From: an uncultured Desulfatiglans sp. | Lineage (GTDB): Bacteria > Desulfobacterota > DSM-4660 > Desulfatiglandales > HGW-15 | DNA: 64,000 bases | Direction of reading: 5' to 3' | NCBI GenBank assembly: GCA_964460435.1 | Contig: CAYWRH010000003.1 | Span: 13,547 to 77,546 of the forward strand | The notes under the pieces: generated by a model | What the model saw: the letters and a program-made list of their open reading frames with translations, nothing else | Database searches by the model: none | What the model was told of the DNA's origin: nothing | In this document: in pieces, positions 23,305-55,736 of the stretch | Layout: every line of letters starts with the position of its first letter | Numbering within the stretch: position 1 is the first letter of the stretch | Program-made: the position numbers and the translations under genes

Positions 23305-23336
23305 GAAGTCATCATTTATATAGAGGAGAAAAGATC

Positions 23337-24818: not shown

Positions 24819-24877
24819 TTAATATACAGCTTTAAGCTGTCTACCAAATCTTATTTTTTTTAAGAGGAGTTTTGATT

Positions 24878-26368: not shown

Positions 26369-26384
26369 CTATGAGGAGTATAGA

Positions 26385-27638: not shown

Positions 27639-27661
27639 TATGGCTTTGAAGGTTTTAATAA

Positions 27662-33599: not shown

Positions 33600-34991
<1,392 letters not shown>

Positions 34992-35097: not shown

Positions 35098-36396
35098 GTG
35101 TCAATAAAATTAAACCTGGCAAAAAGGAGTTATTCCTTGAAGAACTCAAAAACGGCTGTGCCGGTTACGATATGGAACCGTAATTTTATCTGCATATTGC
35201 TGATATCCTTTTTACTCTCAATTTCACATTTTTCAATAAACCCCCTTATTGCCTCCTATGCCCTTCATCTGGGGGCCAATGCCCATATTATGGGTCTTCT
35301 GACAGGTCTTTTTTTTGGCGTCGCCTTTTCAATGCGACCGGTATCAGGCCCTCTTCTTACCAAATTTGACAAACGAAAACTTATGATAATGGTTTTCTTT
35401 ATCGGTGGAGTGGCAAATATCGGTTATGCACTCTTTAACAGCATATCAGCCTTTATCGCATTCAGGCTTCTTCACGGCCTTCAGTACGCACTTGTAGGAA
35501 CCCTTACGATGACCATGGCAGGGGACAACATCCCCAGAGACAAAATGGGTTCAGGAATGGGTGTTTACGGCCTCAGTTCATCGCTGAGCATGGCAATAGC
35601 GCCGAGTTTGGGAATAGGTATTCTGCACCTTGGCACTCATTTAAAAAATGAAGGCCTCGGCTTTACATTCGTTTTTCTTTTTGCAGCGGCTATCTCCTTT
35701 CTGGCTCTCATTCCGGGTCTTCTCCTTTTGCCTGATAAAAAGACAAAAGAAGATCTATTAAGCACAGGGGCATGGTATAAAAATATAGTCTCCGTTCATG
35801 CGATTCCCATGGCTGTGGTTATGTTTTTTATTTATATGGGGTGGTCATTATACAATGTATACATTGTTGAGTATGCAAAAGAGCTGGGGATATCAGGGAT
35901 AAGCTCATTTTATACTGTGCTGGCAATAGTCCTTGTGGTTGCAAGACCGGCAAGCGGTTATCTGACAGACCGGTTCGGGCTAACCCGTATTCTTTTTCCG
36001 GGCCTTATAATAATGGCCCTTTCATATATAATAATAGGATATGCTAAAACAATCGGCGTAATGCTCATTGGGGCAGCTGTTGCCTCTGCAGGGTTCGGCG
36101 CATTTCAGCCTGCCCTCTATTCCATGTGCATGCTTTCCGAAACACCCTTAAAGAGAGGCGTTGCCAGCAATACCCTATATATAGGCATAGATGTTAGTCT
36201 TTTTCTGGGGCCTATTTTAGGAAGCATGGTGTATGATATGTATAACTACTCTGTCATGTTTAGGTCAGCTTCACTGGTGATATTGATGGCGCTTGTTGTA
36301 TTTTTTCTGATCCTGCCATCATATTACCGCAGGCGAAGAGAGCTGGAAAAGATGGATATGAAACAGGCTCCGCCCATCTTGTCCAAATATGATTAG
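35098..36396 (+). CDS. MFS transporter
   Basis: 12 predicted helices. Loop motif between TM2 and TM3: GPLLTKFDKRKL. An alternative TTG start at 35137 has the better RBS (AAAGGAG, 7 nt). Confidence 0.75.
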   Translation: MSIKLNLAKRSYSLKNSKTAVPVTIWNRNFICILLISFLLSISHFSINPLIASYALHLGANAHIMGLLTGLFFGVAFSMRPVSGPLLTKFDKRKLMIMVFFIGGVANIGYALFNSISAFIAFRLLHGLQYALVGTLTMTMAGDNIPRDKMGSGMGVYGLSSSLSMAIAPSLGIGILHLGTHLKNEGLGFTFVFLFAAAISFLALIPGLLLLPDKKTKEDLLSTGAWYKNIVSVHAIPMAVVMFFIYMGWSLYNVYIVEYAKELGISGISSFYTVLAIVLVVARPASGYLTDRFGLTRILFPGLIIMALSYIIIGYAKTIGVMLIGAAVASAGFGAFQPALYSMCMLSETPLKRGVASNTLYIGIDVSLFLGPILGSMVYDMYNYSVMFRSASLVILMALVVFFLILPSYYRRRRELEKMDMKQAPPILSKYD

Positions 36397-36513: not shown

Positions 36514-37470
36514 ATGAAATGTATAGTAATCTACTACTCATGGACAGGAAACACAAAACAGATCGCATCAGCAATACACTCAGGTATTAAGGAGATCTTT
36601 GATGAATGTGATATTATCTCCATGAAGGAGGTGGATATCAATAAATTAAGAGAATACGATCTGATTGGTCTGGGTTCCTTTGTGCAGAGTTTTAGGGAGC
36701 CTGCTCCTGTAACTGAATTTGTAGATGCCATGCCTGATATGACCGGCAAATATGGCTTTACCTTCTGTACGCACGGCACATGCGCAGGTAGCTACATAGA
36801 AAGGATGGTAAAAGGGCTAAGGGGTAAGGGTCTTAAAGTTACCGGGTGGAATGACTGGTATGGCAGCGGTTTTATACCTCTCATGCCAAAACCATATTAT
36901 ACTGATGGACATCCGGACCAGATTGACCTTGATGAGGCTAAAGAGTTCGGAAAGGAGATAGCGCAGCGCAGCCTCAGGATAGCCAGAGGAGAGACCCAGC
37001 TTATGCCTGAACTACCTGAAAGGGAGGAATACGACAGGCTTTATGGCGAACTGATGGACCTTGGCGGTAGGGAGCAGATGGCAGATATGGCAAAATTGAA
37101 ACCGGTGTATAATCCTGAAAAGTGTCTTTATCCGAAATGTTCAAAATGCATGGATAACTGCCCCACCAGAAGCATTGATCTGACCGATTCTCCAAAAATC
37201 AACTACAATACATGCGGCCCCTGCATGGTCTTTTTATGCGAGCAGCTCTGCCCGACAGGCGCAATGGAGGTAAACTGGGATATAGCGGATAATATCATGA
37301 ACACAATGACATCCATCTTTAAAAGGCTTGCCGAGCCAATGGAGAAATACAGGGAGCTCCGCCGTTTCAGAAGCCTTATAACAGCGGAAGAAGGTAGCGG
37401 CACCCCTTTATACAGGAAACAAAGACGCCCAAAGCTTGTTATCCGTGATGGTGTGATGAGAGAGAGCTGA
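36514..37470 (+). CDS. Flavodoxin-like domain fused to a 2x[4Fe-4S] ferredoxin domain
   Basis: Flavodoxin N-terminus MKCIVIYYSWTGNTKQIA. Two Cys groups later: CLYPKCSKCMDNCP and CGPCMVFLCEQLCP. Strong RBS GAAGGAGG. Confidence 0.7.
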   Translation: MKCIVIYYSWTGNTKQIASAIHSGIKEIFDECDIISMKEVDINKLREYDLIGLGSFVQSFREPAPVTEFVDAMPDMTGKYGFTFCTHGTCAGSYIERMVKGLRGKGLKVTGWNDWYGSGFIPLMPKPYYTDGHPDQIDLDEAKEFGKEIAQRSLRIARGETQLMPELPEREEYDRLYGELMDLGGREQMADMAKLKPVYNPEKCLYPKCSKCMDNCPTRSIDLTDSPKINYNTCGPCMVFLCEQLCPTGAMEVNWDIADNIMNTMTSIFKRLAEPMEKYRELRRFRSLITAEEGSGTPLYRKQRRPKLVIRDGVMRES

Positions 37471-37529
37471 TAAGCAGGGGTTACAAGCAGGAGAGAAATG
37501 TATGCTATAATCGTTATGGGAGGTTTAAT

Positions 37530-39461
37530 ATGACTAACTGGCATGATTTTGTTAACAGGGAAGGAACAACCCCCTCCTGGGCTTACCCGGTTGACTATGA
37601 AAAAGAAAATCAGATAGAGACAGATGTCCTGGTTATTGGCGGTGGTATTGCCGGATGCTGGGCAGCGATCAGCGCAGCGAGAAAGGGAGTCAGGGTGGCG
37701 CTTGTGGAGAAGGGTGATACGGTAAGGAGCGGAGCAGGCGGGCCCGGCTGCGACCACTGGGGCCAGTGCCCGGCCAACCCCCATTCAAAGGTCGACCCGG
37801 ATGAATGGGCGAAAATATTAGCTGAACATCCGGGAACAATGGCGGAGATACCTAAGGATATGCCTGAAATTTCCTACGGAAACGGCATAGCAAGCCAGAT
37901 CCAGTGCCGGGAGAGCTATGATACCCTTCTTGAGATGGAGCAGATGGGCGGGCAGATAAGGGATATTCATGACGAGTATGTAGGGGCTGAGGGCAGATAT
38001 GATGATACCAAATTTATGATCTCACCACGCACCAGCCCCAATCATGCCAATGAGATAGTTATACGCATCTGGGGCACCACATTCAAACCTGCCTTAAAAA
38101 AGGAGTGCCAGAGGCTGGGAGTAAAGATCTTTGACCGGGTCATGGTCACAAGCCTCTTGACCGAGAACGGCGAGCAGGGTGCAAGGGTTATAGGCGCAAC
38201 CGGCTTTAATAACCGCACGGGTGAGTTCATGATTTTCAAATCAAAGGCCTCTGTGCTTGCTGCTGCAGGCGATTTCTACATGTGGATGCTTAACACAGAG
38301 CATGCCGGCTGCCGTCAATTTCGTTCCAGAAATGCAACCGGCGATGGCCTTGCCATGGCCTGGAAGGCAGGCGCAGAGCTAGTCTTGATGGAAAAAACCG
38401 TGCCTCTCATGCTGGGCACAGGATACAAGCATAACTGGTATGGCGGCGCAGGAGACGCAAGTTATGAAAATCTTCAGCTTGTAGATGCCAACGGTAAAAA
38501 ACTACCCTGGCCCACACAGGGCTGGGCGGATGGGGGGGCAATGTTCCCGCCTCCTGATGTTATGGCCGCCATCCGAAAGGGTATTAGTAATGGTGAATGG
38601 GCGCTTCCATTTTATGGTGATTTCCCTGCCATGCCTGATATTGAGCGGCGTACAACATGGGATCTCATGCTGGGGCAGGAATCGACGACAAAGATTATTA
38701 CAAGTACCTATGAAAGGGCCGGATTTGATCCGTCCAGACATCTCCTTCAAAACTATGCCTTTATCGAAGGAGAGAATCACTCCCAGTGGCGGACTGCAAG
38801 GGGTGGCGGGCCGATAGTGGACTGGAATCTCAAGACAACCCTGGACGGCCTCTATGCTGCCGGGGAACAGCTCTTTTCATTCGGCGATCACAGCTTTGCA
38901 GCCACGACCGGCAGGTATGCGGGCCGCAAGGCAGCAGATTATGCGAATCAGACTGGCCAGCCCAAAATATGCAGGGAACAGGTCGATCTTGAAAAGGCCC
39001 GTGTCTATGCGCCGGTTAAACGCACTGGCGGCATCGAATGGAAGGAGCTGAACGCAGGTATTGCAAGGACAATGCAGTATTTCTGCAGTGAATACAAGAC
39101 AGAGCTCCTTTTAAACATGGGTCTTGACACGCTTAAGGAGATAGAAGAGGTGTTTGTACCCAGGCTATACGCCCTTGACCCGCATAAACTGATGCGAAGC
39201 ATTGAAGACTTAAGCATGCTTGCCCATGCACAAATGGTGCTGCACGCCTCCCTGGCCCGCAAGGCAAGCAGCAGGGTTCTCAATTTTTACAGGATAGATT
39301 ACCCCGAGATTGACCCGAAGGAATGGTCAAAGTTTATTACAATAAAGCAGGAGAACGGCAAGGTCAAAACAGGCGAGATGCCCTTAAGATACTGGGGTGA
39401 CATGAAGATAAATTACGAGTCATATAACAGGGATTATAAAGGGGTCTATAAAGCCAGATAA
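37530..39461 (+). CDS. FAD flavoprotein of the AprA / fumarate reductase superfamily
   Basis: Dinucleotide fold ETDVLVIGGGIAGCWAAISAARKGVRVALVEKGDTVRSGAGG. Its 643-aa length and the adjacent AprB-like ferredoxin recall adenylylsulfate reductase architecture. Confidence 0.7.
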   Translation: MTNWHDFVNREGTTPSWAYPVDYEKENQIETDVLVIGGGIAGCWAAISAARKGVRVALVEKGDTVRSGAGGPGCDHWGQCPANPHSKVDPDEWAKILAEHPGTMAEIPKDMPEISYGNGIASQIQCRESYDTLLEMEQMGGQIRDIHDEYVGAEGRYDDTKFMISPRTSPNHANEIVIRIWGTTFKPALKKECQRLGVKIFDRVMVTSLLTENGEQGARVIGATGFNNRTGEFMIFKSKASVLAAAGDFYMWMLNTEHAGCRQFRSRNATGDGLAMAWKAGAELVLMEKTVPLMLGTGYKHNWYGGAGDASYENLQLVDANGKKLPWPTQGWADGGAMFPPPDVMAAIRKGISNGEWALPFYGDFPAMPDIERRTTWDLMLGQESTTKIITSTYERAGFDPSRHLLQNYAFIEGENHSQWRTARGGGPIVDWNLKTTLDGLYAAGEQLFSFGDHSFAATTGRYAGRKAADYANQTGQPKICREQVDLEKARVYAPVKRTGGIEWKELNAGIARTMQYFCSEYKTELLLNMGLDTLKEIEEVFVPRLYALDPHKLMRSIEDLSMLAHAQMVLHASLARKASSRVLNFYRIDYPEIDPKEWSKFITIKQENGKVKTGEMPLRYWGDMKINYESYNRDYKGVYKAR

Positions 39462-39471
39462 GGAGATCATC

Positions 39472-39789
39472 ATGACACAGAAAAAACTGAATGCCTTACC
39501 CAATATTATTACACCGAACACACAGGTCATATTCAACCCTGATATATGTATCGGATGCAACCTATGTGTCGAGGTCTGCCAGGTGGATGTATACATGCCC
39601 AATCCTGTGAAAGGGAAACCGCCAATCATCCTTCATCCTGATGAATGCTGGTATTGCGGATGCTGCGTCACGGATTGCCCGTGTCCGGGTGCAATTAATT
39701 TCAACTGGCCCTTGCAGCAGAGAGGTTCATGGAAAGACAAAGTTACAGGCAAGGTGTACAGGGATAATGTGGCGTTTCCAATTCAATGA
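39472..39789 (+). CDS. AprB-like di-cluster [4Fe-4S] ferredoxin
   Basis: CIGCNLCVEVC ... PDECWYCGCCVTDCP. The second motif closely resembles the AprB CWECYSCVKxCP block. Confidence 0.7.
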   Translation: MTQKKLNALPNIITPNTQVIFNPDICIGCNLCVEVCQVDVYMPNPVKGKPPIILHPDECWYCGCCVTDCPCPGAINFNWPLQQRGSWKDKVTGKVYRDNVAFPIQ

Positions 39790-40070
39790 CAGGTGTTGAA
39801 CAGAAGGCCGTCATGCAGAATGCCAGCTCTGCCGCGCCGGTTGATGATGAAACCTGGTTTTATACATTTTCAGGTGGCATGATCGGTTATTTGCCAAAAC
39901 ATTGAATTTGGAGTAACCTTTTATTTATATAGTTAGCTGATAGCTGACCGCTGAAAGCCTCATCCAGAATTTCATTATTTATGGATGGAGACTATATAGC
40001 ATTATTAAACAGGTTATTCCCTGCCAGAGGCAGGGGATTAGGTAACAAATGATAAAAAAAGGAGTGTGAC

Positions 40071-41780
40071 ATGAACAGATTATTATCAGCATTTAATATT
40101 GTGCTTCTGGCTTTCTTGGCTGTCCCGTCTCTATCCATGGCTCAAAGCGCAGGAGATACCGGAACAGAGAAACAAGTTCAATACGAGGCATTGAGCCCCT
40201 GGGCAGATGTGGACCCGATTCCGGTGCGTGGAATCTCTCCCAGACTTGATAGCCTGAAAGGGAAAAAGATCGGGTTATACGTCAACACTAAACGCGCAGC
40301 CATGCCGATCGCAAAATCAGTTGATAAGAGACTGAAGGAGATGTACCCCGATATCCAGACAATAATTTATCAATCTACAGAACCTAATGTGAATGAGATC
40401 GAGACAAAGAACAAGGAAAAATTCACCGAATGGCTAAAGGGCATTGACGCTGCGATTGCCCTGGTGGGTGACTGAGGCTCCTGCACAAAGTACCTCGTCT
40501 ATACAGGAATATCAGTCGAGGACTTTGGCAAGCCGGTCGTGTTACTGGCAAATAATGGCTTTATCAACGACGCCCATTCAGCCGCATCAAGCAAAGGTAT
40601 GCCCGGGATCAGGATTATTGGAGAGACAGTGCCCTGCGAATCTACCGTCATTTCAGATATAGAAAAAGGGGTAGCGGAAGTAATGAAGGAGGTGGTTGAT
40701 GCCCTTGTAAGGCCTCTTACTGCAGATGAGAAATCCCCGAAACAGCAGACAGGCAAAACCCCAAGGGTCGCCTTTAAGGGAACCCTTCAGGAGATAAACC
40801 AGTTCTTTTACCGCAAGGGGTGGGGCGATGGCCTGCCCATTATTCCGCCTACAGAGGAGGCGGTTAAGGAGATGCTTAAAGGGACCGATCTGCCCCCGGA
40901 TCATATTGTGGCAAAAATCATCCCGAGAAAGGGAAAGGCCACTGTCGAGAAGATAGCTATCAATGCTGTGATGGCTGGCGCTCTACCCACCCACATGCCT
41001 GTCCTGATTGCAACAGTGGAGGCCTTTTCCGATCCAAAGGCCAGGTTTGATACATTTGAGGTTAGCACAGGTTCATGGGCCCCATCCCTGACCATAAACG
41101 GCCCTATCAGAAGAGATATACATATCAATTCCGGTTCCGGCTCGCTTAGTCCGGGGAATATTGCCAATTCTGCAATAGGAAGGGCAGTTGGCCTTATTGT
41201 CAAGAATATCGGCGGGGCAAGAAAGGCCGTTGAGGATATGGGAGTAATAGGTAACCCTGGCAAGTACAGTCTTGTGATTGGCGAGGATGAAGAGAATAGC
41301 CCCTGGGAGCCACTCAGTGTTGAGCGCGGCTTTAAAAGGGAAGAGAGCACTGTAACAGTCTTCTTTCCAAACACCTTTATCCAGACAGTACCCGGAGGAA
41401 CAGATGCAAAGGGAATTCTTGATACCCTTGTAACCATGGGCACTACAAGCATGTCGAGCGTCATACTGATTCCCTCATGGGCAAAGGTTTTATCAGGTGA
41501 AGGGTATACAAAGCAGATGGTCAAGGATTACATAGCACAACACAGCAAGCCCGTTGTAATCTCAGGTTTTGAAACCATAACGAATCCCGATAAAATGGAT
41601 ACAGAAAACCTCATGATCCTGGTAGCTGGCGGGCCCGGTTCGTTTATAGGCCTGTTAAAGAGCGTTGGCCCTGGTTTTTTCAACAACGCCCTTGTAACAA
41701 AAAAGATCGTGCTACCAAAGGATTGGAACAAACTGGTTGCAAAATACAGCAATCTTGTGCCGGTTTATGAGAGGTACTGA
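40071..41780 (+). CDS. Candidate selenoprotein (read-through of TGA 40473-40475): signal peptide, GrdB-like U-G-S-C domain, conserved W-G-DGLPIIPPT domain of unknown function
   Basis: Track ORFs 40071..40475 and 40539..41780 are in one frame with only the TGA between them. The fusion (569 aa) is colinear with the 574-aa paralog at 45491..47215. A hairpin lies 18 nt downstream. See findings. Confidence 0.6.
40493..40521 (+). promoter_or_regulatory. SECIS-like hairpin downstream of the in-frame UGA
   Basis: CCUCG(U)CU-AUA / UAU-(C)AG(U)CGAGG with a 6-nt apical loop CAGGAA. The loop starts 29 nt after the UGA. Confidence 0.4.
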
Positions 41781-41799
41781 TGTCAGGAAAGGTTAAATA

Positions 41800-44202
41800 A
41801 TGAAAGAGTATCTCTCCAGGATTGTCAGGGGGAATTTCCCCCTGTGCTTTGAAAAGGCGCGCCTTATTACGGAATCTTTTATAAAGACAGAAGGTGAGCC
41901 AGCCATAATCCGGTATGCAAAGGCCCATGCCAATGTCCTTGAAAATATCAGTGTAATTATTGATAAGGATGAACTCTTTGTTGGTGAAGGGGCGAGCAAA
42001 CCCTGGGGCGCTGAGATTGATCCGTTCCTGGGCATATGGAAAGAGGAGGCAATTAGGGGCGCAGTGGAAGAGGGAATTATCTCGATGGATGATTCAGACT
42101 GGCCCCTTATGCGCGAGCTTGGCAGCTACTGGGCAAAAAGATGTTCCGAGTATGCGCAGTCAAAGCTGCTTGATGAGAGATTTTTCAATTACCTCAGGGT
42201 TGGCATTACATTGCCGCCCATGAAAAACAGGGATGAGTTCAGGGGCGCATATGCTGGCAGCGGCCTCTGCCTCTCATTTAACTTTACCGATTGTTATACA
42301 GACTTTTCGCGATGGATGAAGGGGCTTAACCCCATAATAGGGGAGATAGATGAAGAGCTTAAAAATCTCAGATTTTTATCTCTGGAGGCTGTTAACAAAA
42401 AACAGTTTCTGGTTGCTTCGCTTATTGTGCTGAAGGCAATAGTCCGGTTTGCAGAAAGATATGCTGAAGAGGCTGAAAGACTGGCCGCTATAGAAGCAGA
42501 TGGTGCGTGCAGAAAAAATCTAAAACGTATTGCCACAGCCTGCCGAATTGTTCCGGCCAATCCGCCCGGGAATTTCTATCAGGCCATGCAGTCCTTATGG
42601 TTCAACCAGATCCTGTCTACACCCAGCTCAACACATAATTTCGGCAGGTTTGATCAGTATATGTACCCCTTCTATAAAAAGGATAGGGATGAGGGAAAGA
42701 TCACGGATGAAGAGGTACTGGATCTTTTGTGCGAACTGCGGGTAAAGAGCATGCGGCCTGAAAATATCAAGCTTTCAGCGGCCAAACGTTCACAGCACTC
42801 AGGGTTTGCCAAATGGCGAAATATGACAATCGGCGGCGTAACTTCTGATGGTAAAGATGCGAGTAATGAACTGACATGGCTCGTGCTTGAAGCGGCAAAC
42901 CGTGTGAGAACACCTCACCACACTATTACCATGAGGGTGCATGATAAAACACCCGAAGATCTGATGCTCAAGGCGCTTGAGGTGGTAAAAACCGGTATTG
43001 GAATGCCTGCATTTGCGCTGGATAAATCCTTTATTGATTATATGACTTCAGGCGGAATCCCCCTGAATGAGGCGCGTGACTATCACCTTGCTGGTTGTGT
43101 GGACCCTGCCATTCCTGGCAAACAGAGTTTTCTGGCAGGTCTCTTTTTTGTGGTTCCAAAGGTGCTTGAGATCTTTCTAAATAACGGGATAGACCCACGA
43201 ACAGGGCTCAATATCGGGCCGGACATATCTGATGTTGAAACCTTTAAAACCTTTAGCGATTTCTATGATGGCTTTAAGAAATATCTCAAACATTTTATCG
43301 GCATATGGCATGAACACAGCTTTCTAGTCTCAGGGCGATCCGGGGATGTATATGGATATAACGATATCGTTGAAATGGTTGAAACGCTTCTTATGCAGGA
43401 CGGGGTCAGGATGGGTAAGCCGCTCTCAAACAGGGACGCTGTGCCCCCATACGATTTCAGGGCTGTAATGATACCGGTTGGGGCAATTAACACAGCCGAT
43501 TCGCTTGCAGCCATTAAACAGCTTGTATTCGAAACAAGGCAGATTACCCTTAAAGAGCTGAAACAGGCCCTGAGCGCTAACTGGGAAGGCCATGATGATA
43601 TCAGGAGATTGTGCCTGAAGTCGCCCAAATACGGAAACGACAATGATTATGCAGACTCTATTGCAGCAGACCTCTATAATTTTTTCCTTAAGGAGGAATC
43701 AAATTACCATTCCTTTGGAAGGCCTGTAAACGCAAAGGTGAGGGGAATTGGAGGCGCCTCCATTTCATCCATGTTTGCGGGCGGGTCAATTATCGGGGCC
43801 ACACCTGACGGCAGATATGCCGGAACAACATTATCTGACGGAACAGTATCTCCTGCCCAGGGCATGGACAAAAAGGGTCCCACAGCCATGCTGAGGAGTG
43901 CCGCAAAAATCAACCAGGCAGCATGTTCATCTGCGCTTCTTAACATCAAGCTGCACCCGTCCTTTATTGGAGGCAGAGAAGGGCTTGCAAAACTCGGAAT
44001 GCTTATAAAAACCTATGCCGGTATGGGCGGCAAGTGGGTACAGCTAAATGTAGTTGGAAACGAGGAGTTGCTCGATGCACAGCAGCACCCGGAGAATCAC
44101 AGGGATCTGATTGTAAGGGTTGCAGGATACAGCGCCTATTTTACTGATCTTGGCAAAGGGGTGCAGGATGATATCATCCGGCGTATGGAAGTGGCCATTT
44201 GA
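41800..44202 (+). CDS. Glycyl radical enzyme (PFL2 / glycerol-dehydratase-like family)
   Basis: 800 aa. Cys loop HLAGCVDPAIPG (Cys codon 43096-43098). C-terminal glycyl radical motif RVAGYSAYF (Gly codon 44125-44127). Confidence 0.9.
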   Translation: MKEYLSRIVRGNFPLCFEKARLITESFIKTEGEPAIIRYAKAHANVLENISVIIDKDELFVGEGASKPWGAEIDPFLGIWKEEAIRGAVEEGIISMDDSDWPLMRELGSYWAKRCSEYAQSKLLDERFFNYLRVGITLPPMKNRDEFRGAYAGSGLCLSFNFTDCYTDFSRWMKGLNPIIGEIDEELKNLRFLSLEAVNKKQFLVASLIVLKAIVRFAERYAEEAERLAAIEADGACRKNLKRIATACRIVPANPPGNFYQAMQSLWFNQILSTPSSTHNFGRFDQYMYPFYKKDRDEGKITDEEVLDLLCELRVKSMRPENIKLSAAKRSQHSGFAKWRNMTIGGVTSDGKDASNELTWLVLEAANRVRTPHHTITMRVHDKTPEDLMLKALEVVKTGIGMPAFALDKSFIDYMTSGGIPLNEARDYHLAGCVDPAIPGKQSFLAGLFFVVPKVLEIFLNNGIDPRTGLNIGPDISDVETFKTFSDFYDGFKKYLKHFIGIWHEHSFLVSGRSGDVYGYNDIVEMVETLLMQDGVRMGKPLSNRDAVPPYDFRAVMIPVGAINTADSLAAIKQLVFETRQITLKELKQALSANWEGHDDIRRLCLKSPKYGNDNDYADSIAADLYNFFLKEESNYHSFGRPVNAKVRGIGGASISSMFAGGSIIGATPDGRYAGTTLSDGTVSPAQGMDKKGPTAMLRSAAKINQAACSSALLNIKLHPSFIGGREGLAKLGMLIKTYAGMGGKWVQLNVVGNEELLDAQQHPENHRDLIVRVAGYSAYFTDLGKGVQDDIIRRMEVAI

Positions 44203-44263
44203 CCTGTTATCTATTCCTGTCTCGATATAGACTGAAAATTTTATTATGAAAGGAGAGATCAAA

Positions 44264-44371
44264 ATGAGACAAAAAATTGTATCTGTTCTGATATTTTTCC
44301 TTTCTGTCAGTGTAACCTGTTTCACCCGAAAAGGCCAGGCTTCAATCAGTTCAAACAACATATACAATTAA
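44264..44371 (+). CDS. Possible 35-codon ORF (MRQKIVSVLIFFLSVSVTCFTRKGQASISSNNIYN)
   Basis: Too short for the track. Strong RBS AAAGGAGAG lies 5 nt upstream. The core is hydrophobic and signal-like. Its stop overlaps the RBS of the next gene. Confidence 0.25.
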   Translation: MRQKIVSVLIFFLSVSVTCFTRKGQASISSNNIYN

Positions 44372-44384
44372 AGGAGAAAATCAC

Positions 44385-45314
44385 ATGAAAAACATTTTCA
44401 TCAATATCTTTGTATTTGTATCTTTTTCACTTTTCTGCTCTTTTTCTATGTGCAGTGATGCATCTGCCTCAACCGGCAAAATGGACTCAGCCCTTCTGAT
44501 AAAGGTGATGGATCACTATCTTGGCCAGCTTGTAAAAAACAATCCTGAAGCTCTTTTGGTCGCAAAGGATCTCAAGGTCACAGAGAACGGTTACCCCATT
44601 AAGCTTGGCAAAGGGCTCTTTCAGACGGCAAAGGAGATAACCTACAGACAATATATGACAGACCCCTCAACGAATCAGGTTATGGTATTTGGCGTGGTAA
44701 AGGAATCTATGCTCCTTGCAAATTTCATGGTTCGATTAAAGGTTGTTAAAGACAAGATCACAGAGATTGAGACAATTGTTTCAAGAAAAGATGAGGCATC
44801 ATTTGCCAGCCCTGAAGCGCTTAAAGAGCCAAGACCCATATACGCAAAGGTGCTTTCCGAATCGGAGCGTTCTTCACGCGATAAACTTATAAAAATTGCG
44901 AACAGCTATTTTGACGGCATAGAACAAAACACAGGCGGGATAGTGCCATTCCACAAGGATTGCAACCGTTTTGAAAATGGCACCCAGACCACCAATAACC
45001 CGGCCACGATTGCGACTGGATGTAAAGAACAGTTTGATAACAAGGTATACGCCTATATCACTGAGGTCAGAGACCGGCGCTTTCTGATGGCTGATGAGGA
45101 AAAGGGGCTGGTATTTGGCATATTCATTTTTGATATGCCCGGCAAAAGGGAAGACTTTAAATATTTTCCAACACCCTTTGATGAACTTCCAGCCAGATTC
45201 TACAAGCCAAGGTCCCTGATACTTGCTGAGATGTTCAAGATTGTCGATGGACAAATCCTCTCTATTGAAGCAGTAATGGTTAATGCACCCTTCGGGGCTG
45301 TATCAGGCTGGTAA
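44385..45314 (+). CDS. Secreted hypothetical protein
   Basis: RBS AAAGGAGAA. Signal peptide FVFVSFSLFCSFSMCSDASA. No family motif recognised. Confidence 0.6.
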   Translation: MKNIFINIFVFVSFSLFCSFSMCSDASASTGKMDSALLIKVMDHYLGQLVKNNPEALLVAKDLKVTENGYPIKLGKGLFQTAKEITYRQYMTDPSTNQVMVFGVVKESMLLANFMVRLKVVKDKITEIETIVSRKDEASFASPEALKEPRPIYAKVLSESERSSRDKLIKIANSYFDGIEQNTGGIVPFHKDCNRFENGTQTTNNPATIATGCKEQFDNKVYAYITEVRDRRFLMADEEKGLVFGIFIFDMPGKREDFKYFPTPFDELPARFYKPRSLILAEMFKIVDGQILSIEAVMVNAPFGAVSGW

Positions 45315-45490
45315 TGTAAGAATGCAACAAGAGTGTCTGGAAAATGTTCCGTAGCGCTAATTGCTTAATATGCAGATTCGAGTTGAGTATATTTTATGCC
45401 TTGCAGTATACACTCCATGACTGTCTGTAATGGCGACAATGCCTCTAAAGTTAGCCCCATGAGGTCTGAAAACCGGAAGGAGATGAGGAT

Positions 45491-47215
45491 ATGCCTTTAG
45501 AAAGGTTTGAATTAAGAGTGCTTAACCCGAGGGGTGAGACCGAAAAAAATCCTGTTATGCCTGCATCTCCCCGCCTTAAGGGTCTGAAGGGAAAAAGGAT
45601 CGGGATAATAAGGATAAGGATTCAGGCAGGCGAAATACTGTTCCCTTATCTGGAAAAGGCATTAAGGGAGCAGGCCCCGGACACCATGTGGGAGATACTG
45701 GATATACCATTATCAGAAAATGGCGATGAAAGGGCAGAGAGGATCAGGGAGACGGTTCAGAAATATGACGGCATTGTTATTTCCATGGCAATATCAGGGG
45801 GCAGCACAACAAGGCTCACACCAGATGCGGTGTTTATTGAGAAGATGGGGATACCTGCTGCCTTTATAGTAACCAGATGTTTTGAGACTACTGCAAGATA
45901 TTTTGCCCGGAGTCAGGGTCTTCTGGATGTAGCCGTAGCCCCCTTTGCCTTTGATTATGTGCCCCCGGCAGATGAAATAGTAAGGCTGAATCTGGCGGAT
46001 GACCTTGCAGCCAAAGTTATCCACTCCCTCACCGAATGGTGCCCAGGGCCACCTGTTATTGAACCTGTGACCGAAAGGGTGCTCACCTACACAGGCATTT
46101 CTTATATGGATGCTTATGAAGGGATGGAAAAATCTTTTCTAAAGCATGGCTGGAGTGACGGCTTACCGATAGTGCCACCCACCAGGGAGGCCGTTAACAG
46201 AATGCTTGAGGGGACAGAGCTTTCTCCTGAACATCTTATTGCTGTGTTTCCTCCTGGACAGGGAAAGGCAACAGTAGAAAAAATTGCTGTTAATGCTGTA
46301 ATGGCAGGCTGTCTGCCCCAGTATATGCCCCTTATCCTTGCTGCTGTTGATGCTATTATTGACCCGGCCTTTGATCTTGTTGGTGTCCAGTCAACATCAG
46401 GGCAGCTTGCGCCCCTGTTGATAGTAAGCGGCCAGAAACTGATTGAAAAACTTAATATAAATGACAGTTACTGCACCCTTGGCCCGGGCTGGCGGGCTAA
46501 CAGCTCAATAGGCAGGGCGCTTAAACTTATAATGATGAACATCGGTCACACCTGGCCCGGTATCAACGATATGAAGGCATTCGGTAATCCGTTCAGGTAT
46601 GTCACCCTCATAGGTGAGAATGAAGCAGCATATTCAGGTGCATGGGAACCCTTAAGGGTTACTGAAGGTTATTCAAAAGATCAGCCCACATTGAGCGTGA
46701 TGCCTGCCATGTCATGGCAGCCTGACCTTGTGCTGCCCACTCCACCGGGCGTTGAAAGGATAATCGAACACATAACACTTCAGGCAAAGGCAAAATATGA
46801 CCGTTATGCAAATAACTGTTACTGCAATAATCTGGTACTGATATCACCCACTGCCTTTGATGCCATCCGCAGGGAAGGGGTGTCACAAAAGGAGCTGAAG
46901 CAGGCATTATATGAAAGGATTCAACTGCCAGGCTCTAAGGTTTTTGATGGCAGAGAGAGGATAGGGCTTATTAAATTCCCCAAATGGGTGGTTGATAAAC
47001 ATAAAGCAGACCCTGAAGCACCTGTGCCCATACTGATGAGCCCTGAGAGCCTTAAGATCTGTGTAACAGGAGGTCCTGGGCCTGATATGATCGCCTATAT
47101 AGGCACATGGGGGTATGGGCCTTCCCACTTTATTACCAAACCAATAAAGATACCTTCAGACTGGGATGAACTGCTGGAAAAATACAGGGGATGGGAAAGC
47201 CCAACTGTGAAGTGA
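45491..47215 (+). CDS. Sec-less, signal-less paralog of the 40071..41780 protein (unknown family)
   Basis: Blocks shared with the candidate selenoprotein: SPRLKGLKGKRIG, HGWSDGLPIVPPTREAV, GKATVEKIAVNAVMAGCLPQYMP. It has S-G-G-S where the other has U-G-S-C. Confidence 0.7.
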   Translation: MPLERFELRVLNPRGETEKNPVMPASPRLKGLKGKRIGIIRIRIQAGEILFPYLEKALREQAPDTMWEILDIPLSENGDERAERIRETVQKYDGIVISMAISGGSTTRLTPDAVFIEKMGIPAAFIVTRCFETTARYFARSQGLLDVAVAPFAFDYVPPADEIVRLNLADDLAAKVIHSLTEWCPGPPVIEPVTERVLTYTGISYMDAYEGMEKSFLKHGWSDGLPIVPPTREAVNRMLEGTELSPEHLIAVFPPGQGKATVEKIAVNAVMAGCLPQYMPLILAAVDAIIDPAFDLVGVQSTSGQLAPLLIVSGQKLIEKLNINDSYCTLGPGWRANSSIGRALKLIMMNIGHTWPGINDMKAFGNPFRYVTLIGENEAAYSGAWEPLRVTEGYSKDQPTLSVMPAMSWQPDLVLPTPPGVERIIEHITLQAKAKYDRYANNCYCNNLVLISPTAFDAIRREGVSQKELKQALYERIQLPGSKVFDGRERIGLIKFPKWVVDKHKADPEAPVPILMSPESLKICVTGGPGPDMIAYIGTWGYGPSHFITKPIKIPSDWDELLEKYRGWESPTVK

Positions 47216-47482: not shown

Positions 47483-47794
47483 TCAAGGCTGCGCATCTTT
47501 TTGAACAGCCTGGGCTACCAATTTTACACCAAGTGCAGAGCATACACGGCTTATTGTATCAAAACGCGGGTGTGAGTTTGGCCGCAGGGCTTTGTATAGT
47601 GCCTCTCTTGATATCCCTGCAGCATTGGCCACCTCAGTCATACCTCTTGCCCGTGCAGCTACTCCAAGGGCGTGTGCCAGCTCTCCCGGGTCTCCATCTT
47701 CAATAACGATCGTCAAGTATGCGGCTATATCCTCTTCACTTTTCAGGTGCGCCGCCATATCAAAATCCGGCATTTCTGATATTTTTTTTCCCAT
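47483..47794 (-). CDS. Antitoxin, HTH addiction-module antidote protein (HigA-like)
   Basis: 103 aa. HTH segment GMTEVANAAGISREALYKALRPNSHPRFDT. Starts 3 nt after the toxin gene. Confidence 0.8.
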   Translation of the reverse strand: MGKKISEMPDFDMAAHLKSEEDIAAYLTIVIEDGDPGELAHALGVAARARGMTEVANAAGISREALYKALRPNSHPRFDTISRVCSALGVKLVAQAVQKDAQP

Positions 47795-47797
47795 ACT

Positions 47798-48094
47798 TTA
47801 ATCCTCCAATTCGGCAGCCATTTTTATAGCCTTTGCAATATCTGCTGCCTGTGTTTTCTTTCCACCACCAGCCAACATCACAATCATAGTTTCTCCCCTC
47901 TGGGCGTAATACATCCGCCAGCCCTGACCGAAATGCTCCCTCATTTCAAAAACACCAGCAGCAACAGCCTTGATATCTCCAAGATTCCCATTCTGTGCCC
48001 TGTCAATTCGGCGAGCCAACCGAATCCTAGTCATTCGGTCCTTTATCCCGTCGAGACATTTATCAAAATCAGGTGTTGTTTTGATCGTAATCAT
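47798..48094 (-). CDS. Toxin, addiction-module killer protein (RelE/HigB-like)
   Basis: 98 aa. Pattern FDKCLDGIKD...RIRLARRIDRAQNGNLGDIKAVAAGVFEMREHFGQGWRMYY is typical of this killer family. The toxin-first gene order is HigBA-like. Confidence 0.8.
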   Translation of the reverse strand: MITIKTTPDFDKCLDGIKDRMTRIRLARRIDRAQNGNLGDIKAVAAGVFEMREHFGQGWRMYYAQRGETMIVMLAGGGKKTQAADIAKAIKMAAELED

Positions 48095-49469: not shown

Positions 49470-50360
49470 ATGGCCATTAAATTCAAGGTGTTTCTCCACA
49501 GCTATCTTGGTTTTAACAGCAACTCCACCCTTTTTTACGGGGAAAAGGATGCCATACTTATAGATGCCTCACAGATAATGAGTGACAGTTACAGGATTGC
49601 TGCTGAAATTCTGCCCATGAGAAAAAAACTGACACATATCTATGTCTCCCATTTTCATCCGGATCATCATTTCGGGCTCTCTGTTCTTAAATTTGCCTTT
49701 CCTGATGCCAAGATTGTTGCCCTTCCGAGTGTGATACAGGATATCAAGGCTACCTCAAAAGACAAGATTGATATGTGGGCTATTGACTGCTTCGGCCCTG
49801 GTGAAATACCAAAGTCTGCAACAATACCGGCCCCGCTTACCGAACCAAGGCTTGAGCTTGAAGAAGAGGAGATCATCTTTTCAGACGGCTGGGAAGGTGA
49901 CAGTATTAATAATTCCATTGCATGGGTGCCATCCATACGCGTGCTGTGTGCCACTGATATAGCCTTTCATGGCTGCCACCTCTGGCCAATAGAAAGCAAT
50001 TTGGCCCGCAGGGTTACCTGGCGAAAGGATATCGGAAGGCTTAAGGAGTTTGATGCAAGGATTATCATACCAGGCCATTGCGACGAAGAAAAGATCAGGA
50101 TCATGGATGCTGTTCAGAAGGATGAACACAGTAAATACACGGACTGTGCTGACTGGTCAATAAATTATCTTGATAATTATGAAGAGATATACAGCACTGC
50201 AAAATCAGCGGAAGAGCTGGTTAAGAGGATATATAAAAAATACCCTGATGTAAAGGCTGAGGATTTTGCCATCCAGTGGCAGGCAAGATTGCTTTACCCC
50301 AAAAGCAGCCCTGACTGGCTTTTACCTCTACCGGGTGAACCGGGTAAAAATTTTTCTTAA
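49470..50360 (+). CDS. MBL-fold metallo-hydrolase
   Basis: Metal motif SHFHPDHHFG, with downstream His/Asp positions (CATD, PGH). Confidence 0.75.
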   Translation: MAIKFKVFLHSYLGFNSNSTLFYGEKDAILIDASQIMSDSYRIAAEILPMRKKLTHIYVSHFHPDHHFGLSVLKFAFPDAKIVALPSVIQDIKATSKDKIDMWAIDCFGPGEIPKSATIPAPLTEPRLELEEEEIIFSDGWEGDSINNSIAWVPSIRVLCATDIAFHGCHLWPIESNLARRVTWRKDIGRLKEFDARIIIPGHCDEEKIRIMDAVQKDEHSKYTDCADWSINYLDNYEEIYSTAKSAEELVKRIYKKYPDVKAEDFAIQWQARLLYPKSSPDWLLPLPGEPGKNFS

Positions 50361-50635: not shown

Positions 50636-52126
50636 CTATGCCTCCGGCGCTGTCAGATCAGGCGGGGCAATAACATTTATATTCATCCTCACCATTGCAT
50701 CTGATATCTCCTTGCCAAAACTCCCGGCAATCATATTATGATGGATACCGACAATATTTTGCATGAAACCTTTGACATCCTTTATTTTAATCTCAGCCAT
50801 ATTTGTGCAGAATTTCCGCATCTTGCTGTATTCAGGCGGGGCATTCTTGAATGAAGGTGTTGCCCTGTCATCAACCATCTCTTTTGTTCTTCCCGGCCAT
50901 ATGACGAAATCCTTAAGATCCTTGCTGAATCCGCCAATGGTAACATCAAGACCTATGGGATATGCTATTTCACAGGTGCCGCCCTTGCCCAGACCATGAT
51001 AATCCCTTAAGGTGTATGGCTGCTGTGGTGCATCTGCGCCGAATATCCTTGTAGGTGCAACACAGTGGCGGAGTATTGTGCTTGAGTTCTTGATATCTAC
51101 TGATGATACATTGCTCTGGAAAGAGGGTCTTTTGCTGACCTCCTGTAACAGCATTGATGAGAGCATCATGCATATATCTGCTTCACAGGCAGCAGTTATG
51201 CCTTGGTCCCTGAGTCTCGTAAATGCGAGACATGGAAGGGGGATGGTTGCGTCTGCGCCAAAAGAAAAAGCCAGGCAGTCCACAGAAACGGCTGACAGGT
51301 TTTCTTTTTCAATGAGGGCTTTAAGCAGTATGTATATTTTAGAACTGTGAAGCAGCATTTCATCAGTAACATCTATAATCTTCACTGCGCCCTTCTTCCA
51401 TATTTCCATCTCTTTTCTAGCAGCAGATTCATCTACCTCTTTTATGAGTGTCTTGAGATCATCTATTGGCCTGTGCTCTACCTTCACACCCGTCTGGCTG
51501 TAGATATACTCCTCATTAAGGTTTGGAGACGGGATGCTTGTTGATCCAAATGGTTTGCTGAATACCAGCGCCTTCTTGTTTTCAAGCGGTCTTGGGGCAG
51601 CTACTATTTTTATAAGTTCAAGGGCATGTTCGGCTGAATTTGCAACAAGGGCATTTGTTCCCTTAATGCGGAATGATGCAACAAGGTCTGTCTCCCACAT
51701 TATCAGTTCCGGGTTTCCGGCAAGAATAATAACAGGGATATCCAGATGGCCTATCTGCTCTGCTATATTTCTGGATGACATGCCTATACCGGGCAGCGTG
51801 AAAAGGCAAATGTCCGCATCCTTTTCTTTAATGGATTTCAGGATGTCACCGGGGTTTTTAAAATCGGTTTTAAGCTGGCTCAGATTTATTTCATATTCAC
51901 TGATTGACTTAATTGATCCGAGAACCTTTTCAAATCTCTCCGGGGCATCACTTACAAAAATGAGATTTCTTTTTTTGCCCGCAGGGCTGGGTTTTACCCC
52001 GCCAATGTTTATTACTTTTTCACCTGCTAAAATCGAAACAGGAAAGGCTGCTGCCACCCCGGCCACTGCTGTAGTCTTAAAAAAACCGCGCCTTGTTACA
52101 TGAGTCCATTTCTGGCGATCTTCCAT
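50636..52126 (-). CDS. Tat-signal protein with sugar (fucose/arabinose) isomerase-like fold
   Basis: ATG at 52126 follows AAGGAGG; the track start at 52267 is rejected. Tat motif THVTRRGFFKTTAVAGVAAAFPVSILA. Later blocks (SAVSVDCLAF, GITAACEADICMMLSSMLLQ) recall the FucI/AraA-like family. The fold call is tentative. Confidence 0.55.
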   Translation of the reverse strand: MEDRQKWTHVTRRGFFKTTAVAGVAAAFPVSILAGEKVINIGGVKPSPAGKKRNLIFVSDAPERFEKVLGSIKSISEYEINLSQLKTDFKNPGDILKSIKEKDADICLFTLPGIGMSSRNIAEQIGHLDIPVIILAGNPELIMWETDLVASFRIKGTNALVANSAEHALELIKIVAAPRPLENKKALVFSKPFGSTSIPSPNLNEEYIYSQTGVKVEHRPIDDLKTLIKEVDESAARKEMEIWKKGAVKIIDVTDEMLLHSSKIYILLKALIEKENLSAVSVDCLAFSFGADATIPLPCLAFTRLRDQGITAACEADICMMLSSMLLQEVSKRPSFQSNVSSVDIKNSSTILRHCVAPTRIFGADAPQQPYTLRDYHGLGKGGTCEIAYPIGLDVTIGGFSKDLKDFVIWPGRTKEMVDDRATPSFKNAPPEYSKMRKFCTNMAEIKIKDVKGFMQNIVGIHHNMIAGSFGKEISDAMVRMNINVIAPPDLTAPEA

Positions 52127-52257
52127 CTTAAGCTCCTCCTTAGTGTATGTATCTGGGTTATCAAATTGGTCTTGCATTCTAATCGTATGGCGTGATTGAG
52201 TCAAACTATTCCCTTTAAAAAAATCAATATCAATTTTAAAAAAATTTTTTCCTCCCC

Positions 52258-52286
52258 TTGACTGCAAAATTATCCATGCTTATATT
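52258..52286 (+). promoter_or_regulatory. Possible sigma70-type promoter upstream of the hsp20 pair
   Basis: TTGACT (52258-52263), 17 nt spacer, TATATT (52281-52286). Preceded by an A/T-rich tract. Implies a 5' UTR of about 130 nt. Confidence 0.35.
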
Positions 52287-54300: not shown

Positions 54301-55635
54301 TTAATAGGTTCCGTACTCCTTTGCCGCTTCATTCATGGCCCTTATGTTTTCTAACTTTGCCTCATCAGCGGTTGCGCCAGGTGCAAGTATATAACCGCCA
54401 CCCTTTCCTACCTTCTCGATCAGCTTTTTTGAATGGGCCTTGACATCAGCAGCTTTTCCGGTGACCATCATTGATGTCGGCACATTCCCCATTATGCAGA
54501 ATCTGTTACCCAATATCTCCTTTGCCCTTACTATATCAGTCTGGTCAAAATACCATACAACGCCTTTATCAGGCAGATCCTGTATTAACTCAAGCCGCGA
54601 GTTGTAACCCCCTTCAGCAAAAAGCAGTGGCACAAGCCCTTCATTGATATATCCCTCTGCCACCCTTTTAAGGAAGGGCCAGTAGAATGTCTTGAATTGT
54701 GTTTCAGACATAAATCCATCTGCGCCCCTGTGCAGGGGGATAAAGACCACCGGGGTGCCTGCTGCAAAGGGCATCATGGCAGCTATCTTTATGCTCATAT
54801 CCGCCATCTTGTCCATGTTGGAAAGGAGCCTTTCAGGCCTTTGAAACATATCCATTATAATACCCTTGGTGCCTCTCAAACCTGCACCCAGGGCATCCAG
54901 GGGGGCACCTCCGCCAATGTCAAACCTGAAAAAATTGGGGAAACCCATTTTCAGCCCGCGGTCAGTAATGGCATCAAGTGCCTTGCGCCACTCTTTTTCT
55001 ATTTCATTGGCCTCGGCAAAGGCCCTGAACCCTGCCTGTACATCAGGGGCAGCAAAGGCTGCCAGCGTACTTGCCCCGCCAAAACTGCCCAGCATGGAGA
55101 GGGGCGGGAGTTTTGCAAAGGGCTCTGCTGCCCTGTGTGTCCGGGGTAGCATTACTCGCAGGTTAAAATCGGAGCGATCATTTTCATAGTGATCCCATTC
55201 ATTCGCCTTTAGTATCTCTATCTCCACATGCTGGGGTGATACATTATCCGGAAGGCCGCATCCTGCCCATTTGCTTGTCTTTACCCCCACAATCTCCATT
55301 GCCCTGCCGCTTCGTATAAGATGGGCATCAGGCAGCACATCAAGGTCAAAATCATCCATAAATTTATACCAGGCCTTTAAGAGCTTGTCTGAATCGTACA
55401 TTACCTCTTTAATTGTAAATCCTGCATGAAAGGCGGGCGCATAACCCGGGTGAGAGATTACCGGCACCCTGTCAGGTTCCTGAACCTTTATTGCGGCAAT
55501 TATCCTTTTGACCCTTGCCCTGTAAGCCTCCTGCGCTTCAGGGGTATTAAAGGCAATATCTTCAGGATAAAGCCAGCTGTTAAACCTTTTTTCTCGCTTT
55601 TCTTCTGCTGTAAGTTTTGCCCATTCCTTTTCCAT
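54301..55635 (-). CDS. Uroporphyrinogen decarboxylase (URO-D)-family protein, MtaA/CmuA-like
   Basis: 444 aa. C-terminal pattern GNVPTSMMVTG...GGGYILAPGATADEAKLENI and the overall layout resemble URO-D-fold enzymes. Moderate confidence. Confidence 0.65.
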   Translation of the reverse strand: MEKEWAKLTAEEKREKRFNSWLYPEDIAFNTPEAQEAYRARVKRIIAAIKVQEPDRVPVISHPGYAPAFHAGFTIKEVMYDSDKLLKAWYKFMDDFDLDVLPDAHLIRSGRAMEIVGVKTSKWAGCGLPDNVSPQHVEIEILKANEWDHYENDRSDFNLRVMLPRTHRAAEPFAKLPPLSMLGSFGGASTLAAFAAPDVQAGFRAFAEANEIEKEWRKALDAITDRGLKMGFPNFFRFDIGGGAPLDALGAGLRGTKGIIMDMFQRPERLLSNMDKMADMSIKIAAMMPFAAGTPVVFIPLHRGADGFMSETQFKTFYWPFLKRVAEGYINEGLVPLLFAEGGYNSRLELIQDLPDKGVVWYFDQTDIVRAKEILGNRFCIMGNVPTSMMVTGKAADVKAHSKKLIEKVGKGGGYILAPGATADEAKLENIRAMNEAAKEYGTY

Positions 55636-55736
55636 TGCGCCCTCCCATATGAATAAATATTTACAGTTTTGTCTTTAAAACCATTTACCTGATAATTTAT
55701 TATTACTTAGTGATTGTCAACAGTGAAAAAGAGCAA

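Follow-up and report, generated by a model that had tools for sequence, protein, structure and literature searches.

Glycyl radical enzymes (GREs) of the eliminase type include the B12-independent glycerol dehydratase (GDH; 1r8w) and 1,2-propanediol dehydratase (PD; 5i2a), as well as CutC, HypD, IslA and HpsG. The UGSC proteins are an orphan selenoprotein family that has been known since 2007-2008 (Zhang and Gladyshev; PMC1976440, PMC2398784). In the GOS data they were counted with the most abundant selenoproteins, and they have been called a "major" orphan family since 2008 (PMC1976440, PMC2398784), and their function is still given as unknown in a 2026 review (PMC1976440, PMC2398784, PMC13188914). 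We analyzed a locus at 36514-47215, on the plus strand of a 64-kb stretch of DNA from an uncultured Desulfatiglans sp. (contig CAYWRH010000003.1, positions 13,547 to 77,546; the whole stretch is called the window here), in which a GRE gene follows a gene for a selenoprotein of the UGSC family. The window was 100% identical to the JGI metagenome contig Ga0226655_10000254, and its nearest genomic relatives were metagenome-assembled genomes of the Desulfatiglans/Desulfatiglandales type. An initial annotation of the locus had described a candidate new GRE system, with the GRE flanked by two paralogs of an unrecognized family and preceded by a flavoprotein set resembling AprAB. The layout on which it was built, including all coordinates, gaps and the plus-strand orientation, was reproduced in full by open reading frame (ORF) listing and translation.

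The locus is built from an uncharacterized GRE clade and two orphan protein families, and its kind is that of a GRE catabolic cluster. Our preferred reading, to which we give slightly more credence than doubt, is that it represents a Desulfatiglandales-type variant of a widespread, uncharacterized GRE catabolic locus lying within a larger island for ester-linked plant material, and that the exported selenoprotein (UGSC-Sec) is an accessory that acts in another compartment. The island contains exported GH51-like arabinofuranosidases, carboxylesterases, an Old Yellow Enzyme (OYE), flavoproteins exported by the twin-arginine (Tat) route and fed by a NapGH-like polyferredoxin, and both sugar and major facilitator superfamily (MFS) transporters. 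In this model, an ester would be cleaved by exported hydrolases to give a small alcohol or acid, and the exported UGSC-Sec and DUF8021 proteins may have a part in processing the substrate outside the cytoplasm. The MFS transporter would bring the product into the cell, where the cytoplasmic GRE, activated in trans by an activase encoded elsewhere, would convert it by radical chemistry. The reaction would probably be an elimination or a rearrangement, with Asp435 in place of the Glu of the eliminases, and the OYE, the AprA-like protein with its ferredoxin, and the EFR1 flavodoxin-ferredoxin would provide redox steps or low-potential electrons.

The glycyl radical enzyme

The GRE gene (41800-44202, plus strand) encodes 800 amino acids (aa) that matched both the PFL-like domain (PF02901, 477 bits) and the Gly_radical domain (PF01228, 100 bits), and a thiyl cysteine was present as well. 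The radical-bearing Gly776 (codon 44125-44127) lies in RVAGYSAYF, residues 773-781, a motif found in 115 of the 116 members of the clade, and the thiyl residue Cys433 (codon 43096-43098) lies in an AGCVDP loop, aligns with C433 of GDH and is invariant in the clade. With both elements in place, the enzyme is intact. Compared to the described eliminases, it has the same fold, the same length, the same RVAGYSAYF motif and a single-Cys loop of the form G-C-V-x-P. It differs from them in having Asp for the general-base Glu, in its altered GDH substrate residues and in the lack of an adjacent activase gene in the Desulfatiglandales-type lineage, and its clade is accompanied in other phyla by carboxylesterase and flavoenzyme genes rather than by genes for microcompartments or aldehyde dehydrogenases.

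The best match among solved structures was GDH (1r8w, 416 bits, full length), although solved GREs of all classes were approximately equidistant from this protein. We take the general base of GDH to be Glu435 and its diol-binding residues to be H164, H281, S282 and D447. Relative to 1r8w, E435 is replaced by D (in GCVDP), H164 by D together with a 6-aa insertion, S282 by N and D447 by A, so that only H281 is kept. An identity as a diol or glycerol dehydratase was therefore rejected, both on these replaced substrate residues and on the TIGR01774 score of 515.7 against a cut-off of 678.2. The remaining equivalog models gave HpsG 496 (cut-off 1000), CutC 455 (1050), HypD 450 (1100), IAD 456 (1100), HPAD 370 (1150) and PFL 110 (994). 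Every curated NCBIfam cut-off for a GRE equivalog was missed, by about half. The claim of the initial annotation that this GRE fits no characterized type of GRE cluster is supported. Literature searches on this GRE clade and on clusters of GREs with selenoproteins returned nothing relevant.

The 116 members of the clade (65-100% identity) share GC[VLI]D, S-T-H-N and TDCYTDF motifs and lack the residues of the diol dehydratases. Their sources include Desulfobacteraceae, Desulfatiglans, Dehalococcoidales and Bathyarchaeia. As a rule, GRE clades at 39-58% identity (L034-L088; loci are cited by such numbers throughout), with many members from gut Clostridia and Lachnospiraceae, have GC[VLI]D too, and the Asp-for-Glu Cys loop may thus define a large uncharacterized GRE superclade.

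The exported selenoprotein, its paralog and their C-terminal domain

The gene that ends 19 nt before the GRE (40071-41780, plus strand, 569 codons) matched the UGSC family model PF24696 on both sides of an in-frame TGA at 40473-40475 (codon 135), with profile positions 15-92 upstream (26.9 bits) and 94-171 downstream (36.8 bits; cut-off 25), which places the TGA at the selenocysteine (Sec) position of the family. Against NF041046, a model of the 147-aa standalone form with a cut-off of 125, this protein scored 73.8 and its 574-aa paralog 39.2, both below the cut-off. The "unrecognized family" of the initial annotation is thus recognizable in its N-terminal domain, which is UGSC, and remains uncatalogued in its C-terminal WxDGLPxxPPT domain. 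The TGA within VGD-U-GSC and the reading frame on either side of it were kept in 10 of 10 orthologs, and GD-U-GSC was present in approximately 70 of about 80 more distant homologs.

Just 3' of the TGA, a SECIS-like hairpin (Sec insertion sequence; TGA and hairpin together span 40473-40535) folds with a predicted energy of -25.7 kcal/mol (z = -4.5), and its stem bases were invariant in the 10 orthologs, synonymous sites included. Across 83 homologs, 63% of the stem cells were paired compared to 26-48% with shifted partners, which gives moderate support only. No Rfam SECIS or riboswitch model matched, and RNAalifold found no consensus structure in the 83 ungapped SECIS regions. An in-frame UGA, a frame conserved on both sides of it and a hairpin just downstream are what is expected of a bacterial selenoprotein, and the candidate selenoprotein of the initial annotation was upheld on these grounds.

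The protein also begins with a signal peptide (approximately 40071-40145) that has a charged start, a hydrophobic core and a cleavage-type site of SMA|Q, SWA|Q or SGA|Q. These features were found in all 10 orthologs despite drift of the sequence, and a conserved, cleavable-type signal peptide of this kind places the selenoprotein outside the cytoplasm. The wider Sec-containing subfamily is mixed, with some members carrying a signal peptide and others beginning at a conserved YEVLSPW. As read from sequence, both for Sec incorporation and for export, the product of 40071-41780 is a true, exported selenoprotein.

The N-terminal domain fits the UGSC family in its profile match, in the Sec of its U-G-S-C motif and in the SECIS-like hairpin after the UGA. 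It differs from the described family in being fused to an uncatalogued domain of about 350 aa and, for 40071-41780, in bearing a signal peptide. The 2008 paper names a "UGSC/Unknown_1" fusion (PMC2398784), in which Unknown_1 may correspond to the present C-terminal domain. A further difference is suggested by an AlphaFold2 (AF2) model, in which the domain is predicted to be parallel alpha/beta and flavodoxin-like, unlike a classic thioredoxin. The initial annotation had called the selenoprotein GrdB-like. This identity was rejected, since no GRDB or PrdB match was found in Pfam or NCBIfam at E <= 0.01. What is shared with GrdB/PrdB is a Sec motif of the UxxC type (UxxC is given for PrdB in Table 2 of PMC2398784), whereas sequence similarity is undetectable and the domain architecture differs. 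Loci with UGSC homologs often include a thioredoxin-reductase-like (TrxR-like) gene and a small selenoprotein carrier, an arrangement that recalls the logic of TrxB/Trx/GrdA/GrdB by analogy only.

The second UGSC-like protein (45491-47215, plus strand, 574 aa; PF24696, 67.3 bits) is cytoplasmic, and its gene lies 176 nt after that of the DUF8021 protein. Its paralogy with the selenoprotein, as proposed in the initial annotation, is real (31% identity, E = 2e-61). The description of it as a Sec-less paralog holds insofar as it lacks Sec; it is not a Cys homolog either, because the U(or C)-G-S-C redox motif, present in 40071-41780, is replaced in this protein and in its whole clade by S-G-G-S or T-G-T-S, leaving Ser or Thr at both redox positions. 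An 80% ortholog (L001) directly follows a cluster of esterase, OYE, FAD_oxidored and polyferredoxin genes, in a genome whose GRE is on a different contig. Other homologs recur beside TrxR-like genes, standalone UGSC selenoproteins, DUF6282, uroporphyrinogen decarboxylase (URO-D) family genes and metallo-beta-lactamase (MBL)-fold genes, contexts that hint at a thiol/selenol relay system unrelated to GREs; CoA-transferases and a xanthine-dehydrogenase-type enzyme are also found as neighbors. A few kilobases downstream in the window, MBL-fold, URO-D-family and B12-radical-SAM genes are likewise present (49470-50360 and 54301-57101).

The C-terminal WxDGLPxxPPT domain, approximately 350 aa long, follows the UGSC domain in both paralogs. 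In the selenoprotein it spans about 40746-41777 and contains neither Cys nor a radical-SAM motif, and it therefore cannot replace an activase. It is very common, with 4,786 representative clusters (50% identity) at E <= 1e-3 and 3,004 at 1e-10, and is found on its own (about 340-370 aa), joined to UGSC (about 555-620 aa) or within longer proteins (about 710-740 aa). The last and the first of these forms are exemplified by P0378, P0385, P0389, P0390 and P0399, in which the domain matches the N- or C-terminal half of the longer proteins or makes up a standalone protein of about 350 aa; no Pfam domain was matched in any of them. A profile search of PDB sequences with the C-terminal domain gave nothing. 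Structure prediction, as proposed in the initial annotation, yielded a confident AF2 model of the full-length 574-aa paralog (pLDDT 84, pTM 0.86), with a pLDDT of 74 for the C-terminal domain modeled separately.

An orphan selenoprotein family is thus fused here to a very common uncatalogued domain, and the occurrence of exported, cytoplasmic and redox-dead forms sharpens the question of its function. We offer, tentatively and with more doubt than conviction, a bolder reading. The C-terminal domain would constitute a large undescribed enzyme family, and its Sec fusions would form a selenoenzyme class of a new kind that has exported members. One such member in Desulfatiglandales, together with DUF8021, would have become committed to a pathway in which the cytoplasmic step is carried out by a GRE of new chemistry (GC[VLI]D, an Asp base and an esterase-released monomer).

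Conservation of the neighborhood and competing readings

A genome scan for the GRE yielded 80 loci, which were screened by tblastn with all of the island proteins and with an activase from L006; an activase of 303 aa is encoded in both L006 and L016. Nine of these loci encode a GRE of at least 84% identity (the window, L009-L014, L019 and L023) and make up the close set. A UGSC-Sec ortholog lay upstream of the GRE on the same strand in all nine, across gaps of 19 to 1311 nt. Downstream of the GRE, the gene for the DUF8021 protein was found in eight (81-91% identity), and the ninth contig ends inside the GRE. In the window this gene (44385-45314, plus strand) encodes an exported protein of 309 aa with a signal peptide; it had been described as having no recognizable family and is assigned to PF26061 (DUF8021) by precomputed Pfam annotation. 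The other genes were variable. The EFR1 gene was found in four of the nine loci and an AprA-like ortholog of at least 90% identity in two (the window and L014), with a probable third at the contig edge of L013. The 574-aa paralog adjoins the GRE in the window alone, being absent from the other eight loci, and the picture of a GRE flanked by two paralogs as a system is not supported by this comparison. What stands of the candidate GRE system is an orphan GRE and an order of UGSC-Sec, GRE and DUF8021 genes that is conserved within one taxonomic order; a system of GRE plus paralog was not demonstrated.

Between and around the three core genes, the close loci variously carried genes for a Tat cupin-like protein, a DUF4352-like protein, a second Sec-containing UGSC fusion, several esterases and, in L009, a second GRE. 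The cupin-like protein (approximately 215-229 aa, Tat signal, H-x-H...E...H) is encoded between the selenoprotein gene and the GRE in L023 (9251-9895), L014 (9208-9894), L009 (9213-9902), L011 (4665-5315) and L013 (4898-5548) and has been lost in the window, where the 19-nt gap takes its place. The second GRE of L009 (3711-6185, plus strand, 824 aa, 30% identical) is distant and lies between the MFS and EFR1 genes; the 14.5-kb contig contains no activase gene.

Nineteen further loci with GREs of 67-79% identity came from other phyla (Dehalococcoidales, Acidobacteriota, Chloroflexi). An activase gene lay within 10 kb in 15 of them, usually at 31-153 nt, and a carboxylesterase gene lay near the GRE in 11. 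UGSC fusions were found within 10 kb in 4 of the 19 and in one further metagenome locus, compared to 3 of 54 loci with more distant GREs. Two Dehalococcoidaceae loci (L015 and L031) have an operon of COesterase, activase, GRE, FAD_oxidored and OYE genes, the OYE being 67-68% identical to that of the window (20549-21637), and in L033 the genes beside the GRE include counterparts of the FAD_oxidored (80%) and polyferredoxin (62%) genes in the window. Because these genes join the GRE operon in other phyla, the functional unit is probably larger than 36514-47215 and would include 18986-28879, a block that is probably tied in function to the GRE clade.

Several results weigh against a GRE pathway with an extracytoplasmic accessory. 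No radical-SAM activase gene was found in the 64-kb window plus 10 kb upstream (about 51 kb upstream and 22 kb downstream of the GRE). A GRE was missing from all 80 metagenome loci that carry selenoprotein homologs (35-80% identity); many of these contigs were short, and about 20 had at least 5 kb on each side. Homologs of both the UGSC fusions and DUF8021 occur mostly without GREs, so that the role of the two proteins in the pathway is drawn from local conservation only. Their adjacency to the GRE within one order could reflect inheritance and not selection. For the C-terminal domain, Pfam searches with 35 family members and 10 proteins of other architectures matched only UGSC, and Foldseek searches of the PDB with the full-length and C-terminal domain models gave no credible fold match. 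Promoter and terminator scans of the locus gave the same counts as shuffled sequence.

An activase gene was also lacking within 10 kb in the eight other Desulfatiglandales-type loci (0 of 9 with the window). The EFR1-family protein was considered as a cryptic activase and rejected. Its gene (36514-37470, plus strand) encodes a cytoplasmic fusion of a flavodoxin and a 2x[4Fe-4S] ferredoxin (NF038196, 75.9 bits, cut-off 75; flavodoxin Pfam matches). The N-terminus is flavodoxin-like, and the 4Fe-4S motifs in its C-terminal half match only the ferredoxin-insert segment of activase models and not the radical-SAM core. Orthologs occur in L009, L011 and L014 (76-82%).

An alternative that we regard as unlikely denies any functional link. 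According to it, the Tat flavoproteins, polyferredoxin and esterases form an extracytoplasmic redox or hydrolytic module of their own, of which the UGSC fusions and DUF8021 are part, and the GRE is a neighbor by shared ancestry within one order. It would account for the 574-aa ortholog that directly follows the polyferredoxin cluster in L001, for the recurrence of UGSC fusions with molybdoenzymes and the other genes named above in loci lacking GREs, and for L093 and L164, in which DUF8021 adjoins UGSC fusions and no GRE is present. It is harder to reconcile with the order of UGSC-Sec, GRE and DUF8021, which has outlasted repeated gains and losses of genes around and between them, and the linkage of the esterase, FAD_oxidored and OYE module to the GRE clade in other phyla means that the two modules are not independent. 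Tandem paralogs are common in the 80 UGSC-fusion loci, and distant DUF8021 homologs lie in unrelated contexts.

The proposal that came with the initial annotation, a new GRE system with the UGSC-fusion paralogs as its dedicated partners in redox or substrate processing, is improbable. On this view, the selenoprotein would fill the slot that the activase has elsewhere. The selenoprotein gene does end 19 nt before the GRE, lies upstream in nine of nine related loci and holds the position that the activase has in other phyla; UGSC fusions are commoner near this GRE clade than near other GREs, and in an acidobacterial locus (L060) the GRE is accompanied by an ortholog of the selenoprotein (65-79%). 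However, a conserved signal peptide is present in the selenoprotein and absent from the GRE, and their placement in different compartments makes a direct partnership unlikely. The initial annotation had itself cautioned that signal peptides do not fit a simple cytoplasmic pathway, and this caveat is sustained by their presence on the selenoprotein and the DUF8021 protein and their absence from the GRE. The second paralog is neither conserved at the GRE nor equipped with redox residues, the C-terminal domain offers no substitute for an activase, and most orthologous GREs have no UGSC gene nearby. Enrichment of the paralog family near GREs, on which the proposal had been made to depend, was largely wanting, given the absence of GREs from all 80 UGSC-fusion loci.

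Two aspects of the locus merit further work, the chemistry of the GRE and the abundant uncatalogued domain fused to the selenoprotein. The GRE clade occurs widely among anaerobes of sediments (Desulfatiglandales-type Deltaproteobacteria, Dehalococcoidia, Acidobacteriota and Bathyarchaeia) and combines Asp for the eliminase Glu with an absence of all known substrate signatures. Its clear operon context (carboxylesterase, activase and GRE, followed by flavoenzymes) opens a direct way to finding a new GRE reaction in the anaerobic turnover of carbon. That an otherwise conserved GRE locus has lost its activase makes trans-activation a question for genomes with several GREs. None of these points amounts to the proposed new system of GRE plus paralog.

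The flavoprotein set upstream was claimed to resemble AprAB. It consists of a 643-aa flavin adenine dinucleotide (FAD) flavoprotein (37530-39461, plus strand; FAD_binding_2, 68 bits; Succ_DH_flav_C) followed by a 105-aa ferredoxin (39472-39789, plus strand; Fer4 Pfam matches, two Cys clusters). The likeness lies in the succession of an FAD subunit, here of 643 aa, and a small 2x[4Fe-4S] subunit; the ferredoxin has 105 aa, compared to about 150 aa in AprB. The closest solved relative of the flavoprotein is Archaeoglobus fulgidus AprA (1jnr, 96 bits, same length), in a fragmentary alignment confined to FAD-binding and capping-domain segments. An APS (adenosine 5'-phosphosulfate) reductase identity was rejected, as the aprA model TIGR02061 scored 105.7 against a cut-off of 641.75 and Met occupies the position of AprA R265, which we take to be the catalytic arginine. 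Membership in the AprA/FrdA superfamily and a di-cluster ferredoxin are what remain of the claim, and the set fails the tests for AprA and is found in a minority of loci. Judged by these features, 37530-39461 encodes a member of this superfamily that has no assigned specificity and is partnered by an AprB-like ferredoxin, in a variable part of the locus; a close flavoprotein ortholog was found only in L014 (91%), and ferredoxin orthologs in L014 (94%) and L013 (90%).

A further suggestion of the initial annotation was that a product of the GRE may feed the flavoprotein/ferredoxin chain. In a sulfonate form of this idea, which is very improbable, the GRE would be a C-S lyase on an organosulfonate, with the AprA-like flavoprotein and ferredoxin oxidizing the released sulfite in the manner of a reverse APS reductase. 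The best equivalog-type match of the GRE is indeed the sulfopropanediol dehydratase HpsG, AprA is the nearest solved relative of a flavoprotein that is followed by a small di-cluster ferredoxin, and a distant flavoprotein/ferredoxin pair adjoins the GRE in L006 and L023, but the HpsG score is half of its cut-off and no better than that of the generic TIGR01774 (516), the flavoprotein fails as AprA in score, alignment and the Arg265 position, its close orthologs are limited to two of the nine close loci and a probable third, and the window contains no sat, dsr or sulfonate-transport genes.

The surrounding island and minor features

Many of the island proteins carry signals for the general secretory (Sec) or Tat export pathway. 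The block at 18986-28879 (plus strand) encodes two carboxylesterases, an OYE ene-reductase between them, two FAD_oxidored flavoproteins that carry Tat signals, a membrane protein resembling Nramp and a NapH/NapG-like polyferredoxin, as identified by Pfam and NCBIfam matches and by Tat and signal peptides. Within it, the set at 23337-28879 (the two FAD_oxidored proteins, PF12831, the Nramp-like protein and the polyferredoxin, in which the NapH- and NapG-like parts are fused) resembles a reductase module that works in the periplasm and is fed by quinol. An exported esterase of 447 aa (33600-34943, minus strand; PF00756, signal peptide) has an ortholog that is kept upstream in L009 (87%), and others lie close to the GRE in L060 (72%) and L029 (66%). 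The MFS transporter (35098-36396, plus strand; MFS_1, 161 bits) is the candidate substrate importer, with orthologs upstream in L009 (78%) and L011 (85%).

An arabinose/arabinan block at 9554-33419 comprises araA, ribulokinase-like and aldolase/epimerase-like genes and encodes a LacI regulator, a sugar ABC transporter and two GH51-like arabinofuranosidases that are exported. This block gives the island its ecological setting, the breakdown of plant cell-wall esters. On the minus strand at 50636-52267, a 543-aa protein with a twin-arginine signal matched no Pfam family.

A small ORF with a signal-peptide-like product lies between the GRE and DUF8021 genes (44246-44371, plus strand; 41 aa by translation, or 35 aa from the second Met at 44264). 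Its open frame and hydrophobic core are kept in L011 and L013, and it is absent from L014; its status is uncertain, and it could be a real micro-protein or a relic of the signal peptide of a lost gene. At the downstream edge of the locus, a toxin-antitoxin pair consisting of a HigA-like antitoxin (PF21716, 111 bits) and a Gp49/HigB-like toxin (PF05973, 27 bits) adjoins the gene for the 574-aa paralog (47483-48094, minus strand) and coincides with a break in synteny compared to related genomes.

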